UHGV virus genome: UHGV-0368429
Length of the DNA: 47,797 nucleotides
Reading direction: 5' to 3' (one strand)
From: a virus
Shown here: piece by piece, positions 8,320-43,784 of the stretch
Layout: each line of letters opens with the position of its first letter
Numbering within the stretch: the first letter of the stretch is position 1
The notes under the pieces: model-generated
What the model saw: the letters and a program-made list of their open reading frames with translations, nothing else
The model's database searches: none
What the model was told of the DNA's origin: nothing
Position numbers and translations under genes: made by a program

Positions 8320-9063
8320 ATGCCAACACCAAATCCACTTGCTCCTGTAAAAGGCGCCGGTACCACCCTCTGGCTTTACACCGGAACGGGCAACGCTTTC
8401 GCTAACCCACTCTCTGATATCGACTGGAATCGCCTGGCGAAAATCAAAGAGCTGACGCCGGGCGAAATGACCGCCGAATCGTATGACGACACTTACCTCG
8501 ACGACGAGGATGCCGACTGGAACGCGACGGCCCAGGGGGCAAAATCTGCTGGCGATACCTCGTTCACCCTCGCCTGGAAGCCGGGCGAAGAAGGGCAAAA
8601 AGACCTGGTCGCATGGTTTATTGATGGCTCAGTACGCTATTACAAAATTAAATACCCGAACGGTACCGTCGACGTTTTCCGCGGCTGGTGCAGCAGTCTG
8701 GGTAAAGCCATTCCGGCAAAAGAGGTCATTACCCGTACAGCGAAAATCACCAATACCGGCAAGCCGGAGCTGGCTGAAGAAAGCGGGACCCCGAATATCC
8801 CCGTGACCGGCGTTACGCTCGATAAAGCCACGGCAAGCGTGGTCGTGGGCGCAACCACAACGCTCAATGTGACGGTTAACCCTGCCAGTGCCTCAGATAC
8901 CTCGTTCCGCGTGGCAACCTCCGACGGGGCAAAAGCAACGGTCACCGTTAGCGGCAACGCGATCACCGTCACCGGCGTGGCGGCAGGTACCGCTGACGTT
9001 ATTGTTATGACCAGCGATGGTAATTTCGTAGCGGTCTGCAAAGTCACCGTAACTGCAGCGTAA
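8320..9063 (+). CDS. V: Major tail tube protein gpV with C-terminal Ig-like domain
   Basis: 247 aa, size and position of lambda gpV; C-terminal [33 protein letters not shown]... looks like a Big_2-type domain. Confidence 0.85.
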
Positions 9064-9073
9064 GGAAGGACGC

Positions 9074-9505
9074 ATGTTTCTGAAAAAAGAGAAGTTCACC
9101 TGGCAAACAGAATCCCTGACCATCTTCGAGCTGTCGGCGCTGCAGCGTATTGAGTACATCACGTTTATGGCCGCAGAGGAAAAGGCCGTCAGCGCTGACA
9201 GCGACGGCATCAGCGATCAGGAAATGACGGCCAGGCTGATTGGCTCAAATATTCGCTGCGGTGCGCGTTTGATCGCGATGTCTTTGTGGCATAACGATCC
9301 GGCTGGCACGGATGTGGAGACGCTTTATCAGCAGGTGCTTAGCGGCTGGCCGCCGGAGGCGATCGGTAAAGCAGAAATGGAAATAAAGCTGCTCTCCGGC
9401 ATGCTCGTTCCGGTTGATGATGACAACGTTGCCGATCCGGATGCCTCCGCGGAGGCCGAAAGCGCTGAACCCGTTACGGCGGAAAAGCCCTTGCCAGCGA
9501 GCTGA
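9074..9505 (+). CDS. G: Tail assembly chaperone gpG
   Basis: 143 aa in the gpG position; ends at TGA 9503..9505. Confidence 0.85.
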   Translation: MFLKKEKFTWQTESLTIFELSALQRIEYITFMAAEEKAVSADSDGISDQEMTARLIGSNIRCGARLIAMSLWHNDPAGTDVETLYQQVLSGWPPEAIGKAEMEIKLLSGMLVPVDDDNVADPDASAEAESAEPVTAEKPLPAS

Positions 9506-22213: not shown

Positions 22214-22417
22214 ACAATACTCAGGCATCTAACAAGTAAAACGCCGCCCATCGCATGCAAGAATTTGCGGCGGCTAAAATCTGCTCATTAAGAGTTACTG
22301 CCATAAAATTTACAAAACTCATAATTCGAAACGACATAGAAACTTAGAAACGAAACGGCGAAGCTTTAAGCATTCATCACAGACCCTCTGTCTTGCGTGC
22401 ATACTCAAATGAAACTA

Positions 22418-22433
22418 CTGTATATAAAAACAG
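22418..22433. promoter_or_regulatory. LexA (SOS) box upstream of umuD
   Basis: CTGTATATAAAAACAG = CTGT-N8-ACAG with AT-rich spacer, 18 bp before the umuD ATG; identical in form to the E. coli umuDC operator. Confidence 0.85.
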
Positions 22434-22450
22434 TGTTTGAGGTATGCAAC

Positions 22451-22870
22451 ATGGAATTTATCAGGCCTGCAGAACTGCGAGAAATTATAGCTCTCCCGCT
22501 TTTCAGTGACTTAGTGCAGTGTGGTTTCCCAAGCCCAGCGGCTGATTACGTTGAACAGCGCATCGATCTCAATGAGTTACTTGTTGCTCACCCGAGCTCA
22601 ACGTATTTCGTCAAAGCCGCGGGCGATTCTATGATCGAAGCCGGGATCAGCGACGGTGATCTGCTGGTAGTGGACAGCTCCAGGACTGCTGAGCATGGTG
22701 ACATTGTCATCGCTGCGGTGGAAGGGGAGTTCACTGTTAAACGCCTGCAGCTGCGCCCGAACGTGCAACTAAACCCTATGAACAGCGCCTACAGTCCGAT
22801 AGTTATTGGCTGCGAAGATACGCTGGACGTTTTCGGCGTCGTGACTTTCATCGTTAAATCGGCGAGCTGA
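22451..22870 (+). CDS. umuD: UmuD-like error-prone polymerase accessory subunit (S24 peptidase)
   Basis: [45 protein letters not shown]...KAAGDSM... closely matches E. coli UmuD as recalled. Confidence 0.9.
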
Positions 22871-22872
22871 AC

Positions 22873-24141
22873 ATGTTCGCGCTCTGTGATGTGAATTCGT
22901 TCTACGCATCATGCGAGACGGTGTTTCGGCCTGATTTGAGGGGGCGCCCGGTTGTCGTTCTCTCGAATAATGATGGCTGCGTAATTGCGCGCAGCGCCGA
23001 GGCCAAAGCCGCCGGAATTACCATGGGTGAGCCTTTCTTCAAGCAAAAGGAGCTTTTCCGGCGCGCTGGCGTTGTTTGCTTCAGCAGCAATTACGAGCTG
23101 TACGCTGATATGTCGAACCGGGTAATGACGACGCTGGAAGAAATGAGCCCTCGCGTCGAAATATATAGCATCGATGAAGCTTTTTGCGACCTTACTGGTG
23201 TTCGAAACTGCCGGGACCTGACAGAGTTTGGCAAAGAGATCCGCGCGACGGTTCTGAAGCGTACGCACCTGACTGTCGGGATTGGCATCGCGAAAAGTAA
23301 GACCCTTGCAAAGCTGGCAAATCACGCCGCCAAAAAATGGCAGCGTCAGACGGGCGGAGTTGTTGATTTGTCCAATATCGATCGCCAGCGTCGGTTGTTG
23401 GCTATTGTGCCTGTGGAGGACGTATGGGGCGTCGGCAGGCGCATCAGTAAGAAGCTGAACGCCATGGGCATCAAAACGGCTCTGGACCTCTCAGAACAAA
23501 GCACATGGATTATCCGTAAACACTTTAACGTGGTACTCGAGCGAACGGTCCGGGAGTTGCGCGGCGAGCCTTGTCTTGATCTGGAGGAGTTTGCACCAGC
23601 TAAGCAGGAAATCGTCTGCAGTCGGTCATTCGGTGAACGCGTTACCGAATACGAACAGATGCGGCAGGCTATTTGCAGCTATGCGGCGCGTGGTGCTGAA
23701 AAGCTTCGCGGCGAACATCAGTATTGCCGTTTTATCTCTGCGTTCGTGAAGACGTCACCTTTTGCCCTGAACGAGCCGTATTACGGCAACAGCGCGTCAG
23801 TGAAGCTTCTCACCCCCACTCAGGATTCCCGCGACATCATCAACGCCGCGGTAAAGTGCCTGGACAAAATCTGGAAGGATGGGCACCGCTATCAAAAGGC
23901 TGGAATTATGCTGGGAGATTTTTTCAGTCAAGGGGTGGCACAGCTGAACCTTTTCGATGAGCACGCGCCGCGCGCTGGAAGCGATAAGTTGATGGATGTG
24001 CTCGATCACTTGAACGCGAAAGAAGGGAAAGGAACACTCTTCTTTGCCGGGCAGGGCATTCAACAGCAGTGGCAGATGAAGCGGCAGTTGCTTTCACCCC
24101 GATATACTACTCGCATATCAGATTTATTAATTGTGAAGTAA
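22873..24141 (+). CDS. umuC: UmuC-like Y-family translesion DNA polymerase (Pol V catalytic subunit)
   Basis: 422 aa; [41 protein letters not shown]... is the Y-family N-terminus; immediately follows umuD. Confidence 0.9.
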
Positions 24142-24166
24142 AAAGGCTGCTTAACGCAGCCTTTTT
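24141..24166. terminator. Bidirectional rho-independent terminator (umuC and convergent small ORF)
   Basis: AAAA-GGCTGC-TTAAC-GCAGCC-TTTTT; A-run on one side, T-run on the other. Confidence 0.7.
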
Positions 24167-24172
24167 AGTTAA

Positions 24173-24322
24173 TTAAGCAGCTTTTTTCTCGCTGCATTTG
24201 CAATGAGGGATAACAAAAACTTTCGCCTTTTTAGGGCGGATGATTTTACCATCCTTCATTACATAGGGCGTGAAGGTTACTTCACACGAATTCCCACATT
24301 TTGGACAATAGCCAGTTTTCAT
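24173..24322 (-). CDS. Unlisted small ORF (49 aa): zinc-ribbon-like protein, putatively SOS-regulated
   Basis: Translated by hand (below the 60-aa listing cutoff): MKTGYCPKCGNSCEVTFTPYVMKDGKIIRPKKAKVFVIPHCKCSEKKAA*; CPKC...HCKC; GGAG about 7 nt before ATG; LexA box 28 bp upstream; terminator downstream. Confidence 0.5.
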   Translation of the reverse strand: MKTGYCPKCGNSCEVTFTPYVMKDGKIIRPKKAKVFVIPHCKCSEKKAA

Positions 24323-24349
24323 GTGAGATCTCCTATGTAAATGTACAGC

Positions 24350-24365
24350 CTGTAAATCTAAACAG
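24350..24365. promoter_or_regulatory. LexA (SOS) box upstream of the small zinc-ribbon ORF
   Basis: CTGTAAATCTAAACAG = CTGT-N8-ACAG with AT-rich spacer. Confidence 0.65.
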
Positions 24366-24476
24366 ATTGCACCTTGTTAGGAGAACCACTATACTTTTAG
24401 CCGTCAAGCATTTTGTGTAGCGGTAGATTTCTCCATACACACCGAGTTATGCGTCAACATAGCTCGCCCCCTAAGA

Positions 24477-24500
24477 AGCCCTGCGTCAACAGGGCTTTTT
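24477..24500. terminator. Hairpin terminator just past the ImmA-like gene
   Basis: GCCCTG-CGTCAA-CAGGGC followed by TTTTTT on the plus strand, preceded by A-rich sequence. Confidence 0.5.
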
Positions 24501-24983
24501 TCAATAAAATTCAAAGCAAAGCTGTGCTGTTTGATAGCCCAATTTATCGAGCATCGTTTCTGCGAAAAGATCCGCCTGCCATTCAGAATCTTCATTTTGT
24601 TCCGGCATGGCATTCGCAAAGTGTAAGGCTGGCTTATGTTGTAGTAGCAAGTGCCCGAGCTCATGGAATATAACAAATAACGCTGATCGTTCACCGCCAC
24701 ATGCCATTTCATAGATATGGTTTGGAACCCTGATAGTCAGTTTGTCAGGTTCACAGTGTCCAATCGTTAGACCCAGCGTTTCCTGAAACCATTCGTCATC
24801 ATCCATTGGATCGAGGACAATATTCCATTGAGATAATGTTTCCAGCGCTACGTCAAATCTGCGCGGTCTACGCCGGTATTTATACTTACTAGTAAATCCG
24901 AGTGCAAAGCAAGCATTTACAGCTATCGCTTTAATTTCCATTTCACTCAGAGGACGAACACGTGTACCGCGCATTAAATGCAT
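24501..24983 (-). CDS. ImmA/IrrE-family zinc metallopeptidase (COG2856-like)
   Basis: 160 aa with HEXXH motif (FHELGHLLLQH); immediately downstream of an XRE HTH gene in the same orientation; AT-rich. Confidence 0.7.
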   Translation of the reverse strand: MHLMRGTRVRPLSEMEIKAIAVNACFALGFTSKYKYRRRPRRFDVALETLSQWNIVLDPMDDDEWFQETLGLTIGHCEPDKLTIRVPNHIYEMACGGERSALFVIFHELGHLLLQHKPALHFANAMPEQNEDSEWQADLFAETMLDKLGYQTAQLCFEFY

Positions 24984-25000
24984 AACAGTTTCCTAAGCAG

Positions 25001-25360
25001 TTATTTTTTGTTGATTTCTGCAAGTAATTCTGCAAATTTTTTTAATTCTTCATGGGTGAATTCCGATTTTGCAAAACCAGCAACAAGCATTTGTTGTTGC
25101 TTTGGTAAACCTTCAATAGGTACCAATTCATTCGCGATAGAAGCTAAAACATCGAGATCATCAATGTAATAACCTTGCGCTGCAAAAAGTTCATTGATTG
25201 CCGTTACCCATTTCTCTGGTATTTTTTTAGTCCCTGTTTCGAGCCCGCTTAGAAAAGCAGGTGTTGTTCCTAAAGCCTTTGCCATTGTAAGCAAAGTATA
25301 ACCAGTATCGATCCGAGCTTTCCTTACGGCCTTTCCGAAATCAGTAAGAGCCATAGTCAT
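25001..25360 (-). CDS. XRE-family helix-turn-helix transcriptional regulator
   Basis: 119 aa; N-terminal HTH (…FGKAVRKARIDTGYTLLTMAKALGTTPAFLSGLETG…); paired with the ImmA-like gene. Confidence 0.7.
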   Translation of the reverse strand: MTMALTDFGKAVRKARIDTGYTLLTMAKALGTTPAFLSGLETGTKKIPEKWVTAINELFAAQGYYIDDLDVLASIANELVPIEGLPKQQQMLVAGFAKSEFTHEELKKFAELLAEINKK

Positions 25361-25459
25361 ATCCTCAGTGCTTTCATTGTGGCTTACGCCAGATGTTCTA
25401 AATATACTCTAACCATAAAAAAAGTAAACTCATCAAGAAAAATAAATTAACCAAAAAGG

Positions 25460-26131
25460 TTAAGTTATTATTTCTATTAGATTTTTACCTTGATTTCTGG
25501 CGTTTCCAACCGCGCGTGTAACAGCGTGCCAGATAAACTTGTCGGCAGGCACTGCGCCGTCGGCTGCTATCTCTTCAGCTTCTTTCCCGCCTATATCCTG
25601 ACGTATCCACTCGCGAGCCGCTTCCGGTGACAGAACCAGTGGCCGGCGATCGTGAATATCGACCAGACCTTTATCAGCTGCAGATGTCACGATGAGAAAA
25701 CCTTCAGCTTCGTCTCCACGCTCAAATGGTGTGCTGCCGATAGCCGCCATAAATATTGGCTGGCCGTCGGCCCGGTGAATGAAGTAGGGCTGTTTCTTGT
25801 CTGCTTCCTTCTTCCATTCGAACCAGCCATCCGCAAAGCAGATCGCCCGGCCATGTTGCCAGAGAGGCTTGAACATTCGGCTGGTGGCCGCCGTCTCGAC
25901 GCGTGCGTTAATCAGTGGCGGTTTATCCCACCACTCGGGCGCGTAAGACCACAGGACTGGATCAAGATGCAGCTGCTCGTTGCGTTCGCTCAGGAGCAGC
26001 ACCTTGGTACCGGGCGAGACGTTGTACCGGCCTATAGGTTCCGGGTCATACGCAATGTCACGATCGGCTTCATCGGCCAAGTATGCCAGATATTCTTCAC
26101 GGGTTTGGGCTTGTGCAAAACGTCCACACAC
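25460..26131 (-). CDS. yedK: SOS-response-associated peptidase (SRAP; YedK/HMCES family abasic-site processing protein)
   Basis: 223 aa starting MCGRFAQAQTREEYLAYLADEADRDIAYDPEPIGRYNVSPGTKVLLLSERNEQLHLDPVLWSYAPEWWDKPPLINARVETAATSRMFKP..., matching E. coli YedK with the catalytic Cys2. Confidence 0.85.
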   Translation of the reverse strand: MCGRFAQAQTREEYLAYLADEADRDIAYDPEPIGRYNVSPGTKVLLLSERNEQLHLDPVLWSYAPEWWDKPPLINARVETAATSRMFKPLWQHGRAICFADGWFEWKKEADKKQPYFIHRADGQPIFMAAIGSTPFERGDEAEGFLIVTSAADKGLVDIHDRRPLVLSPEAAREWIRQDIGGKEAEEIAADGAVPADKFIWHAVTRAVGNARNQGKNLIEIIT

Positions 26132-26311
26132 AGGAACCTCCAGTCAGTAAGACTGAAAGTATAGGGCAGGGAGAAAAAGTAGTGTGCGCTGGTTAAGTCC
26201 TACAAACGGATTCGCGCTGATTATGCTAATGAGGATGAAATGCGTAAAGCGATGCGTTGTGAAACTGGAAGGAGCTACGCAAAGTTGCGACAATGCCAAA
26301 AGAGAAAGCTA

Positions 26312-26335
26312 AACCCGGTAGGGGATCCGGGTTCG
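26312..26335 (-). terminator. Hairpin terminator downstream of dinI
   Basis: Inverted repeat AACCCGG-TAGGGGAT-CCGGGTT; T-containing tract follows on the minus strand. Confidence 0.4.
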
Positions 26336-26356
26336 CTGTGATGACAATATGGAAAT

Positions 26357-26596
26357 TCATTCATTAGTAAGCCACATATCAGACTCTTCAAACATATCCT
26401 CCAGCATACGGTTCAACTTTTCACGGTCACTTTTGCTGGCATCACTATTCAATCCGTTAGCCTGCATAGGTTTCACCTTCACTTCAGCATCAGGGAATAT
26501 GCTATGCACTCGCCTCGTCAGCTCAGCCAAAATAATTTCTCTGGCGCCATCCAAGCCCTGGACATTTCGCTTATCGTAAACCAACTCAACAAACAT
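26357..26596 (-). CDS. dinI: DinI-family DNA-damage-inducible protein
   Basis: 79 aa; ...GAREIILAELTRRVHSIFPDAEVKV...EESDMWLTNE follows the E. coli DinI pattern; LexA box 42 bp upstream. Confidence 0.8.
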   Translation of the reverse strand: MFVELVYDKRNVQGLDGAREIILAELTRRVHSIFPDAEVKVKPMQANGLNSDASKSDREKLNRMLEDMFEESDMWLTNE

Positions 26597-26637
26597 AACA
26601 GTCTCCTTAATCTCTGTGAGAGGAAGCTATATTTTTA

Positions 26638-26653
26638 CTGTAAATATATACAG
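26638..26653. promoter_or_regulatory. LexA (SOS) box upstream of dinI
   Basis: CTGTAAATATATACAG = CTGT-N8-ACAG. Confidence 0.8.
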
Positions 26654-26767
26654 TGTCAAGCGAGTGATACGATCTACACGATGGGATTTTTCGTCCGGTT
26701 GAACAGAAATTACCGGTAGTTATTCCCCAGTTATTCCCCAATATTTCCCCGTAAGAAAACTACCAAT

Positions 26768-26797: not shown

Positions 26798-26807
26798 AAT
26801 GTATTTT

Positions 26808-26853
26808 TGGTCGGCACGAGAGGATTTGAACCTCCGACCCCCGACACCCCATG
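26808..26853 (-). other. attP core: 3'-terminal 46 nt of a tRNA-Pro-like gene (partial tRNA, not intact)
   Basis: Reverse complement CATGGGGTGTCGGGGGTCGGAGGTTCAAATCCTCTCGTGCCGACCA has T-arm, acceptor 3' strand and CCA and matches the 3' part of E. coli proL as recalled; the 5' half is absent; int is adjacent. Confidence 0.65.
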
Positions 26854-26904
26854 TCACTGCGTTAAAGCCGCTGCAACCCTTGTAAATACTGGTGCTACGG
26901 CATG

Positions 26905-26940
26905 TTTGACTGTATATGCAAACAGTGCATTTTTTGCAAA
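26905..26940 (-). promoter_or_regulatory. LexA-box-containing promoter-like element between int and attP, oriented toward attP
   Basis: CTGTATATGCAAACAG (26910..26925); on the minus strand TTGCAA-17-TATACA flanks and overlaps it. Confidence 0.4.
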
Positions 26941-26989: not shown

Positions 26990-28183
26990 TCACCCGGCTT
27001 TAAAGACAATTTCAGCATGAGGAACTTCTACCCATTCCACATGGTTCTGGGTATAAACTTTTGTCGATTTTGCATCACTATGGGCCATCCTTGCCTGCGG
27101 ATCGATACCTTGTCTTTCGAAAATATGAGCCGCCAGCGCTCTAATCTCGTGGAAAGTTGGCCTTTCTTTGATAGGTAATTCTGCCGCTACACCTATCCGG
27201 TCCCGCAGCTCTGAAAATGCCCTGCTCAAATAATCAGGGGCCACCTGTGTTGGGTGGTTAACTTCCTTGCTTATCGGATTGCTTCTCTTTTCCAGAAGCC
27301 GGTGAATAACATAAGGACTGGCCACATTGTCTCTGCTGTTGTCGATGATCTCTTTCAGGGCCCTGCCGATCGGAATAGCGACGTGTGAAGCCTCTTTGTG
27401 CTGCACTTTTTGCCGATGAATGTAAAGCGTTCCGAATATGCCAGCCTCCTCCTGATCGAACCATACACAGCCGCAAACCCCTTCTTGAGGTTCCTTGATC
27501 GAGTACCGGATCCGGGAAACTTCCAGGCGCGCTTGCGTAGTTTGTATGGCAAGGTCCATTGCAGTCTTCAGCCAAGGTTCAGCAGCTGCATGTATGGCCA
27601 GGAACTGTTCCAAAGTAAGTCGCCGGCGGACCTTTTTATCGACACGCCGCATTTTTTTCCGTGTTGCAGGGTTATCCATCATTAGCGATTCATCAACAGC
27701 ATAAGAGAATAGCTTTTTCAGGAAGCTAACTTTTCGGTTCTGAACATTGGCCGACGATTCAGAATGGTAATTTCGTATGTAGGCATTTACGTGCTCAAGC
27801 TCAATATCGCATGCGGGTATGTTATTAAAAAATTCTTTAACCCTGATGGCATCATTATTCCAATCGTCAAGTGTGCTTTTAGACGGCTGCTCATCTTTGA
27901 TTGCTCTCTCCATAATGCGATCAACATGTTCAGAAAACGGGTGGGCTTCACCATTCAGCCCTCCCGATTCCCGAATTAATGAATCTATCGATGGTGTATT
28001 TTCAGGGCGCATCCTCAGGTTATATTCTCGGGCGATGGCGATAGCCATTACTCGATCCGAACCGAGAGTTTTCTTTTTCCCAGTTATAAGCGTGAACTTA
28101 TACACGCCACGATCTTTATCAAAAAAAAGATAATCAGGAAGGTGGCGGTATTCTTTTTTTCGTGGCCTTGCTGCCATGGTCAA
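26990..28183 (-). CDS. int: Tyrosine integrase
   Basis: 397 aa next to attP on the same strand; lambda-type position; C-terminal region typical of tyrosine recombinases. Confidence 0.85.
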   Translation of the reverse strand: MTMAARPRKKEYRHLPDYLFFDKDRGVYKFTLITGKKKTLGSDRVMAIAIAREYNLRMRPENTPSIDSLIRESGGLNGEAHPFSEHVDRIMERAIKDEQPSKSTLDDWNNDAIRVKEFFNNIPACDIELEHVNAYIRNYHSESSANVQNRKVSFLKKLFSYAVDESLMMDNPATRKKMRRVDKKVRRRLTLEQFLAIHAAAEPWLKTAMDLAIQTTQARLEVSRIRYSIKEPQEGVCGCVWFDQEEAGIFGTLYIHRQKVQHKEASHVAIPIGRALKEIIDNSRDNVASPYVIHRLLEKRSNPISKEVNHPTQVAPDYLSRAFSELRDRIGVAAELPIKERPTFHEIRALAAHIFERQGIDPQARMAHSDAKSTKVYTQNHVEWVEVPHAEIVFKAG

Positions 28184-42731: not shown

Positions 42732-43784
42732 ATGAAAAATACTGTAAATATAAACAGTGTTGAGCTTGTCAACGCTGACTGCCTGCAATACCTCGCAACC
42801 CTCCCAGATAACACCATCGACCTTATTGTTACGGATCCGCCTTATTTTAAGGTGAAGCCGAACGGCTGGGATAATCAGTGGAATGGTGACGCCGACTATC
42901 TTCGCTGGCTTGATATGTGTCTTGCCCAGTTCTGGCGAGTGCTTAAGCCTGCCGGCAGCCTGTATTTGTTTTCAGGTCACCGACTTGCATCCCATATTGA
43001 GATCATGATGCGTGAACGCTTCAACGTCATGAACCACATTATCTGGGCGAAGCCATCAGGGCGCTGGAACGGGTGTAATAAAGAAAGCCTGCGCTCTTAC
43101 TTTCCCGCGACGGAACGCATCCTTTTCGCTGAGCATTATCAGGGGCCATATAAGCCGAAAAGCGACGGATTTGCTGAGAAAAGCAACGAGGTCAAACAGC
43201 ACGTCATGGCTCCGTTAATCACCTACTTTCGGGAAGCACGAGCCGAACTGGGGGTCACGTCCAGGCAAATAGCTGACGCCACCGGAAAGAAAAATATGGC
43301 GTCTCACTGGTTCGGTGCCAGTCAGTGGCAACTACCGAACGAGCAGGATTACGAAAAGCTGCAGGAATTGTTCACTCAGATCGCCATTGAGAAGCACCGC
43401 GCCTCTGAACTCAAAGCACCGCATCACCAGCTGGTGGCCACATGGCATTCGTTGAACCGGAAATACCTTGATCTGCTGGAAGAGTACAAATCTCTTCGGC
43501 GGCATTTCTCTGTGACAGTAGCCGTGCCCTATACAGACGTCTGGACACATAAACCCGTCCAGTTCTATCCAGGCAAACACCCGTGCGAAAAGCCCGCTGA
43601 TATGTTGCGGCAAATCATCAACGCCAGCAGCAGGCCCGGCGATGTGGTAGCTGATTTCTTTATGGGCTCGGGATCAACTGTTAAAGCAGCCATTGAACTG
43701 GGCCGCCAGGCTATCGGCGTAGAACTGGAAGAGGAACGTTTCAACCAGACGGTAAGTGAGGTAAGGCAGCTGGCAGGGGAATAA
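42732..43784 (+). CDS. DNA methyltransferase, DPPY class (N6-adenine or N4-cytosine)
   Basis: 350 aa; motif order ...IDLIVTDPPYF... (catalytic) before ...FFMGSGST... (SAM-binding) is beta-class. Confidence 0.8.
   Translation: MKNTVNINSVELVNADCLQYLATLPDNTIDLIVTDPPYFKVKPNGWDNQWNGDADYLRWLDMCLAQFWRVLKPAGSLYLFSGHRLASHIEIMMRERFNVMNHIIWAKPSGRWNGCNKESLRSYFPATERILFAEHYQGPYKPKSDGFAEKSNEVKQHVMAPLITYFREARAELGVTSRQIADATGKKNMASHWFGASQWQLPNEQDYEKLQELFTQIAIEKHRASELKAPHHQLVATWHSLNRKYLDLLEEYKSLRRHFSVTVAVPYTDVWTHKPVQFYPGKHPCEKPADMLRQIINASSRPGDVVADFFMGSGSTVKAAIELGRQAIGVELEEERFNQTVSEVRQLAGE

Follow-up and report, generated by a model that had tools for sequence, protein, structure and literature searches.

The virus genome UHGV-0368429, a DNA stretch of 47,797 nucleotides (nt) that was analysed as a whole and is referred to here as the window, holds an open reading frame (ORF) for a protein of 49 amino acids (aa), located between umuC and a gene of the ImmA/IrrE type. 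The question raised by this locus is whether the ORF is a gene at all, whether it is switched on by DNA damage and what its product might do. Microproteins induced by the SOS response are few and hard to annotate, and they are often potent regulators. In a preliminary description, the ORF was proposed as an unannotated zinc-ribbon protein with a LexA box, a Shine-Dalgarno (SD) sequence and a terminator. In the in silico follow-up of this proposal, the coding frame and the selection that preserves it, the conserved operators, the covarying hairpins, the terminator and the synteny were all shown. The ORF is a genuine conserved small protein gene, carried by a Klebsiella prophage as its host element. 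Taking identity and SOS control together, it is very probably a LexA-repressed prophage accessory ('moron') gene. The features of the locus are listed in Table 1.

Table 1. Features of the 49-aa ORF and its surroundings, in window coordinates
Feature	Position	Strand	Basis or remark
Bidirectional intrinsic terminator, common to the ORF and the convergent umuC	24140..24166	both	folding
49-aa Cys-rich (zinc-ribbon-like) ORF, MKTGYCPKCGNSCEVTFTPYVMKDGKIIRPKKAKVFVIPHCKCSEKKAA	24173..24322 (stop codon included)	minus	translation, family alignments, dN/dS, AlphaFold2 model
SD sequence AGGAG	24330..24334	minus	7 nt before the ATG, by reading
LexA operator 2, imperfect, CTGTACATTTACATAG	24333..24348		17 nt downstream of operator 1, overlaps the SD sequence
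LexA operator 1, perfect core, CTGTTTAGATTTACAG (minus-strand reading)	24350..24365		27 nt upstream of the ATG
Conserved block, GGTTCTCCTAACAAGGTGCAAT	24366..24387	minus	spans the 3' end of SL3 and continues to the LexA box
Stem-loop SL3, long imperfect hairpin GGAG...ACCGCUAcac...loop (TTGACG)...guaUAGUGGU-UCUCC	24380..24434		covariation
Stem-loop SL2, hairpin CGAGCTATG-TTGACG-CATAACTCG	24443..24466		structure conserved, sequence not
Stem-loop SL1, GC-rich hairpin AAGCCCTG-TTGACG-CAGGGCTT	24476..24497		directly after the ImmA stop codon, terminator-like
ImmA/IrrE (Peptidase_M78) gene, recurrent upstream neighbour	24501..24983	minus	Peptidase_M78 E 1.3e-6, capP E 1.2e-4
XRE-family helix-turn-helix (HTH) regulator paired with ImmA	25001..25360	minus	capH E 2.2e-4

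A conserved cysteine-rich microprotein gene

The translation given in the preliminary description was reproduced exactly, and conservation of its reading frame, which had been named as a check, is evident from strong purifying selection. Among 36 distinct coding sequences, the Nei-Gojobori ratio of non-synonymous to synonymous substitution (dN/dS) is 0.01-0.2, with synonymous sites near saturation (proportion of synonymous differences, pS, 0.5-0.9). For instance, loci L011 and L012 are separated by 13 synonymous and 0 non-synonymous differences. A tblastn search of 50,697 phage records gave matches only in two Klebsiella prophages; homologues are present in Klebsiella phage ST846-OXA48phi9.2 (100% identity) and Klebsiella phage ST13-OXA48phi12.4 (41%), and another on a Salmonella Senftenberg replicon (59%). 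From large protein collections, 7 and then about 40 clusters were retrieved, all of them from Gammaproteobacteria (Klebsiella, Escherichia, Salmonella, Yersinia, Proteus, Vibrio, Alteromonas and Parashewanella) and every one labelled hypothetical. The gene had been called unannotated. This is correct for the homologous ORF in MK422450.1, for RefSeq E. coli O55:H7 RM12579, where the whole module lies within an unannotated gap, and for the Salmonella plasmid record, where the PLSDB gene table, which is incomplete, has no entry under the homologue match. It is incorrect for MK416022.1, in which the identical protein is entered as a hypothetical protein (QBP07755.1), and for NCBI/UniRef, where the same hypothetical protein is present on 433 contigs.

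It is vanishingly improbable that the ORF is spurious or a decaying remnant without function, a reading that is already effectively refuted. The ORF is indeed very short, it is often overlooked by gene callers and one NCBI homologue is frameshifted, all of which would fit that reading; the strong purifying selection at saturated synonymous sites, the Cys, Gly and Pro residues that are invariant across the roughly 40 clusters, and the conservation of SD sequence, operator and terminator argue against it. The frameshifted homologue (P0003, on a 5.5 Mb contig of an NCBI genome) has three single-base homopolymer deletions, by which the frame is shifted and then restored and the C-terminal Cys pair is lost. 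Such shifts are typical of sequencing error, and they are most simply explained by sequencing or assembly error, not by decay.

In the family alignments, C6, C9, G25, I38, P39 and C41 are invariant, and C13, F17, F36 and C43 are kept at 90% or more. Two Cys knuckles, C6/C9/C13 and I38-P39-x-C41-x-C43, are thereby conserved family-wide. The metal-binding pattern had been read as CxxC...HCxC. A Cys-based metal-site pattern stands, while the His ligand does not: H40 varies, and the signature is therefore CxxCGxxC...IPxCxC. An AlphaFold2 model built on a 33-sequence alignment is all-beta (strands 2-5, 12-18, 21-23, 26-28 and 36-40), with a mean predicted local distance difference test score (pLDDT) of 77.9, reaching 85-90 over residues 11-40; this beta-hairpin ribbon agrees with the zinc-ribbon fold that had been expected. 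As read from the sequence, 10 Lys and 1 Arg stand against only 3 Asp/Glu, for a net charge of about +8, and there is no hydrophobic stretch or membrane segment.

The family was said to be unrecognisable, and indeed profile searches of Pfam, NCBIfam, PHROGs and PADLOC gave no match to the 49-aa protein, the best Pfam hit being zf_Tbcl_2 with 17.3 bits against a cut-off of 27. A sequence profile search of the PDB returned only the generic CPKCG knuckle of TFIIS, RpoM and Nop10 ribbons (E >= 0.09), and Foldseek against the PDB found no solved structural relative (best E 1.7). Taken together, the Pfam, NCBIfam and PDB searches linked the protein significantly to no curated zinc-ribbon family and to no solved structure. 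In BFVD, the sole match is an uncharacterised homologue with 51% identity. The ORF founds a family of zinc-ribbon microproteins that is so far uncharacterised, with members that are 44-50 aa long, rich in Cys and strongly basic. No description of the family, its Cys signature or the three-hairpin cassette described below was found in a full-text literature search. While the SOS-controlled prophage microprotein is a kind already known, the family, the signature and the cassette are new to the libraries consulted. The microprotein is under strong selection across enterobacterial prophages and is absent from every family library consulted.

Predicted LexA operators and a portable hairpin cassette

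The expression signals that had been claimed were all located. The LexA box, said to lie about 28 bp upstream, is a perfect CTGT-N8-ACAG core, followed by a second, imperfect operator. The window contains five perfect cores against 0.57 expected, a number reached in 0 of 100 shuffles; of the other four, one precedes umuD (22418), one precedes a DinI-family gene (26638), one is beside an integrase and tRNA remnant (26910) and one is at the start of a methyltransferase ORF (42742). Across copies of the locus, the core stands at a fixed 22-nt offset from the conserved block and is perfect in 38 of 46 distinct cassettes. The tandem layout recurs in L078 and L003, and group 2 loci have two perfect cores. 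The operator conserved at a fixed place, the tandem boxes and the SOS neighbours give good in silico support to SOS control of the 49-aa gene, in which LexA would bind these boxes and DNA damage would induce expression. The SD sequence claimed for the ORF is AGGAG, a type kept in group 1a and group 2 loci. The terminator said to be common to umuC, AAAAAGGCTGC-GTTAA-GCAGCCTTTTT, overlaps the umuC stop codon and is strong on both strands, with folding energies of -18.1 (minus strand) and -19.2 kcal/mol (plus strand) and z of -6.3 and -5.5, respectively. It was overlooked by a consensus scanner because the A/T runs extend the stem.

Upstream of these signals, about 180 nt are conserved at least as well as the coding region. 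Three hairpins were identified here, SL1 to SL3, followed by the conserved block. In the cassette consensus, SL3 reads GGAG...ACCGCUAcac...loop...guNUAGCGGU-UCUCC and the block reads GGTTCTCCYAACAA-N3-GCAA, after which the LexA core follows. Based on 27 non-redundant sequences, 86.9-96.6% of the helix cells pair, against 36-51% when the partners are slid, and both partners have changed in 14 or 15 pairs (double changes), whereas shuffles give 5-7 such pairs, with 0 of 500 shuffles reaching the observed number. Double changes occur in 8 of the 9 SL2 pairs. In SL3, the variable inner stem covaries and one helix pair is found as G-C (14), A-U (8) and G.U (5). One predicted helix of the element is the LexA palindrome itself. 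The element is a candidate new regulatory RNA. No Rfam 15 family matched it at the gathering score in the window, L002 or L003, and a sensitive Rfam scan gave chance-level matches only. Its two strands fold similarly (-41.2 and -42.5 kcal/mol).

The loops of SL1 and SL2 are identical to each other within a locus and differ between loci (TTGACG, CGCTAA, CTAGGA, CTGAGAA, CTTCGAA or CTGCAAA). In L078 (9606-9727), both loops are the reverse complement of the TTGACG of the window and have thus been flipped together. In the window, the repeated loops are at 24452-24457 and 24484-24489, the loop of SL3 is also TTGACG, and across loci the repeated loop is 6-8 nt long. Antitermination of the nut or put type was considered, as SL1 may be similar to the lambda boxB stem and the block, faintly, to boxA. 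A conserved leader peptide starting at ATGGAG was considered and rejected by reading, as neither length nor frame is constant between loci and L043 and L062 have ACG in place of the ATG. The DinI-family gene of the window has a plain promoter (TTGACA, then a LexA box, then TAAAAT) without SL2 or SL3, so the extra hairpins are specific to the microprotein cassette.

The order SL1, SL2, SL3, conserved block, one or two LexA operators, SD sequence, small ORF and terminator makes up a cassette. A DNA pattern search with the conserved block found 63 IMG/VR loci. The loose pattern TATGGAG-N5-10-CCRCNACAC gave mainly chance matches, and true copies could be told apart only by means of a covariance model, which was built from SL1-SL3 alone and added further copies. 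The scan of genome contigs returned three species only. Matches to the conserved non-coding block are present in unannotated DNA of 49 of 5,426 complete E. coli genomes. Seventeen loci have the same cassette, with two perfect tandem LexA cores, in front of a different ORF of 44 aa (phrog_21154), MAHDVNRDNFIYEHDKPVYVRSYCRIRFGELEHVRQHFRSYPSC. This cargo was found in L026 (3092-3226) and also in L021, L030, L031, L038, L039, L046, L049, L053 and L062-L074, with the cI, DUF3024 (PDC-S43) and 177-aa genes of lambdoid prophages on one side and their PL-N on the other. Homology of the 44-aa ORF to the Cys family was tried and rejected (hhalign probability 0.35%). Since the same cassette is combined with an unrelated ORF, it is a portable unit, with recombination exchanging its partners on either side.

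The sites occupied differ as well. In the window, the cassette lies after the tail fibre genes, near an att remnant. Elsewhere, it was found in the nin region beside hokD, in a DarTG/BrxR island, between the cI operon and PL-N (the rex position of lambda) with the defence candidate PDC-S43 one gene further upstream, and, as a tandem duplicate, adjoining cos-Q in a P2-like phage. In this last case (L007), the microprotein genes at 2-145 and 447-581 stand beside the portal and terminase genes, and the upstream copy ends in ...VIPQCNCK*.

Neighbouring genes and possible functions

At the prophage end, 22397-26660 of the window is a compact DNA-damage island. On the minus strand, it consists of the DinI-family gene with its own textbook SOS promoter (TTGACA-CTGTATATATTTACAG-T-AAAAAT), an SRAP (YedK-like) gene, the XRE HTH gene, the ImmA/IrrE gene and the cassette with the ORF, followed by the convergent umuC-umuD. 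ImmA lies directly upstream in 41 and XRE in 37 of the 54 loci with the Cys ORF, and the two proteins weakly match CapP and CapH, respectively. Pairs of this type act as repressor/protease switches that respond to DNA damage (bioRxiv 10.1101/2022.04.27.489752; PMC6868357). The strong synteny suggests a functional link with the small ORF. In all group 2 loci and in L003, a 177-aa protein is encoded upstream. The three-hairpin element, the modularity of the cassette and the recurrent XRE/ImmA neighbour all go beyond the preliminary description.

The explanation of the locus that is preferred overall, though tentatively and as somewhat short of probable, is that the gene encodes an SOS-derepressed, antirepressor-like soluble effector. 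In an undamaged cell, as in established SOS biology, LexA would occupy the tandem operators between the conserved block and the SD sequence. DNA damage stimulates, through RecA, the self-cleavage of LexA and so frees its operators; here, this would clear the way for a short mRNA, presumably started within the conserved block (24366-24387), which would be translated from the AGGAG and end at the terminator common to umuC. The product might then act as a zinc-stabilised binder of a regulatory partner, in the manner of an antirepressor. The best candidates for this partner would be the XRE/ImmA repressor-protease switch that travels with the cassette, or a phage repressor that cannot be cleaved. 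The antirepressor-like step, taken by itself, is on the doubtful side.

Gifsy prophages carry small LexA-controlled antirepressors that are preceded by terminator-like palindromes, near dinI (PMC3121763). Like Gifsy GfoA/GftA/GfhA, 186 Tum and N15 AntC (PMC3121763), the 49-aa ORF is a small prophage gene outside the immunity region, near dinI, with a LexA box after a terminator-like palindrome. The host prophage may resemble those systems in its repressor too. MK416022.1 (L075), which carries the identical gene, has an HTH repressor of 127 aa that, as judged from annotation and length only, would be too short for a self-cleaving S24 domain and probably cannot cleave itself. Unlike these antirepressors, with which it shares no sequence similarity, the 49-aa protein is a Cys-rich zinc ribbon. 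Its gene stands alone instead of in a dinI-antirepressor-irsA operon and has the additional SL2 and SL3 hairpins, and the Klebsiella prophage already has a Gifsy-type operon. This operon (dinI, a small ORF and DUF1367) lies at 20407-21624 in L075 and at 5441-6631 in L002, immediately 3' of the microprotein cassette in the latter, and presumably encodes the LexA-controlled antirepressor of both Klebsiella prophages.

The CapH/CapP, ImmR/ImmA and DdrO/IrrE pairs respond to DNA damage and control neighbouring genes, and they likewise consist of adjacent XRE HTH and M78 proteins. Unlike in CapH/CapP, the pair here is co-directional with the small ORF and split off from it by the terminator-like SL1, with no divergent common promoter; moreover, the small ORF has LexA operators of its own, and the cassette also occurs without the pair.

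Several observations weigh against SOS-controlled antirepression. In eight of the 46 distinct cassettes, no perfect core stands where it would be expected (two have one mismatch and six at least two), and L083, L085, L086 and L009 keep the hairpins and the gene, having lost a good LexA box. No sigma-70-like promoter for the ORF was found on the minus strand, either by scanner or by hand, the hand-picked candidates reaching only 3/6 + 3/6. In phage records and in profile and structure libraries, the protein resembles neither Tum nor GfoA/GftA nor any other characterised protein, be it in sequence or in structure; in particular, neither tblastn against the phage records nor the PHROGs search gave any antirepressor homology. 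The cassette lacks XRE/ImmA in at least 10 loci, and the hairpin element is a point of free recombination between ImmA types and small-protein subtypes. An XRE operator shared with the small ORF was sought and rejected, as no operator-like repeat is common to the XRE promoter region and the region upstream of the ORF. Finally, the MK416022.1 prophage could be supplied with an antirepressor by its own dinI/small ORF/DUF1367 operon.

Two other protein functions were weighed. A host-directed SOS effector, which would block cell division, replication, RecA/UmuD function or anti-phage defence in the manner of SulA, Kil, DicB, DinI or PsiB, is rather unlikely. It would suit a gene in an SOS island beside dinI, SRAP and umuDC and a cassette that is found in moron and defence hot-spots (cos-Q, the rex position, DarTG/BrxR and the nin region by hokD), also without XRE/ImmA. 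However, the association with hot-spots is circumstantial, and no similarity to known inhibitors was found in the libraries searched. A regulator that binds DNA or an RNA hairpin as a basic zinc ribbon, perhaps the neighbouring hairpins themselves, is improbable. Its models, Mu Com and P2 Ogr / P4 Delta, are also phage-encoded basic proteins of about 50-70 aa with Cys4 zinc sites; they have no detectable homology to the 49-aa protein, in which the Cys spacing differs (CxxC-x3-C ... CxC) and zinc binding is predicted. The charge, the weak zinc-knuckle matches to nucleic-acid-binding ribbons (TFIIS, RpoM and Nop10 among them), and the conserved hairpins immediately upstream, with SL1 and SL2 loops that are identical and flip together, would all be expected of such a protein. 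Yet every structural and sequence match is non-significant, the hairpin element persists with the unrelated, near-neutral 44-aa cargo, and the loop sequences are independent of the protein subtype.

The preliminary description had also suggested a toxin or division inhibitor, for which no support was found: the protein is highly basic, has no hydrophobic segment and its mRNA shows no complementarity to the element. It is probably not a membrane toxin. An SOS type I toxin-antitoxin system of the tisB/istR or dinQ/agrB type, with the ORF as toxin and the element as a divergent antitoxin small RNA (sRNA) ending at SL1, is very unlikely. The layout is alike in that a very small ORF with a LexA box adjoins a structured non-coding element, from which a divergent RNA might be made. 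In addition, the U-tract of SL1 is better for the antisense transcript (5.0 against 2.3 of 8), a marginal antisense promoter candidate, TTGCAC-17-TATACT, is present at 24367-24395 (+), with 8/12 matches by hand and only 3/6 in the -35, and 24406-24500 (+) matches Rfam istR non-significantly (13.2 bits, gathering 45, E 3.5). Unlike in tisB/istR-1 and dinQ/agrB, the leader here is short instead of long and structured, no Rfam match is significant, and the protein is basic and hydrophilic, without a membrane segment and with an all-beta soluble model. Complementarity of either element strand to the initiation region, or to the whole mRNA, exceeded shuffles in 0 of 26 loci, and the base-pairing antitoxin model was rejected on both tests. 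The promoter candidate is below the scanner threshold and pairing within SL3 would account just as well for its conservation, so a divergent sRNA starting there is kept only as a weak possibility. The substitutions in the element give mixed signals on its direction: one SL3 pair evolves via G.U on the sense strand only (G.U 5 against 0), the helix mismatches overall are near-balanced between strands (G.T 6, A.C 8), and the asymmetry of G.U and A.C points to neither strand. As the protein is not hydrophobic and complementarity is no greater than in shuffles, this type of system was rejected as the leading model.

Beyond the antirepressor-like effector preferred above, the three hairpins and LexA operators might form a hitherto undescribed portable SOS module inserted in defence and moron hot-spots, with a new structured RNA, possibly divergent or dual-strand, that ends at SL1, and with a microprotein that triggers or modulates XRE/ImmA switches; this is a long shot at present. 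The locus would be of much higher interest if the hairpin element were a new regulatory RNA, or if the protein provided the SOS input to XRE/ImmA switches. The gene is found beside error-prone polymerase genes and in the defence and moron hot-spots of prophages from Klebsiella, E. coli and Salmonella that are of clinical relevance, and the target of the microprotein could connect DNA damage in a new way with prophage behaviour and mutagenesis.

Other LexA cores and RNA genes

In ST13-OXA48phi12.4 (L002), the enterobacterial sRNA STnc100 (Rfam RF02076, 82 bits) was found at 8923-9126, about 4 kb downstream of the cassette copy. In the window, the perfect LexA core at 42742-42757 (TACTGTAAATATAAACAGTG) lies inside the first codons of an ORF for a DNA methyltransferase with a DPPY motif (MKNTVNINSVELVNADCLQYLATLPDNTIDLIVTDPPYF...). 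This methylase may be SOS-controlled, or the LexA match may be due to chance. The perfect core at 26910-26925 is accompanied by a minus-strand TTTGCA-17-ATATAC that resembles a promoter, and the two are directed into a sequence resembling the 3' half of a tRNA (GGTTCAAATCC...CCGACCA; window 26800-26930), which was not called as a tRNA by ARAGORN. It is located just past the 3' end of the integrase gene (26990-28183) and is probably an att-site remnant at the junction of two elements.

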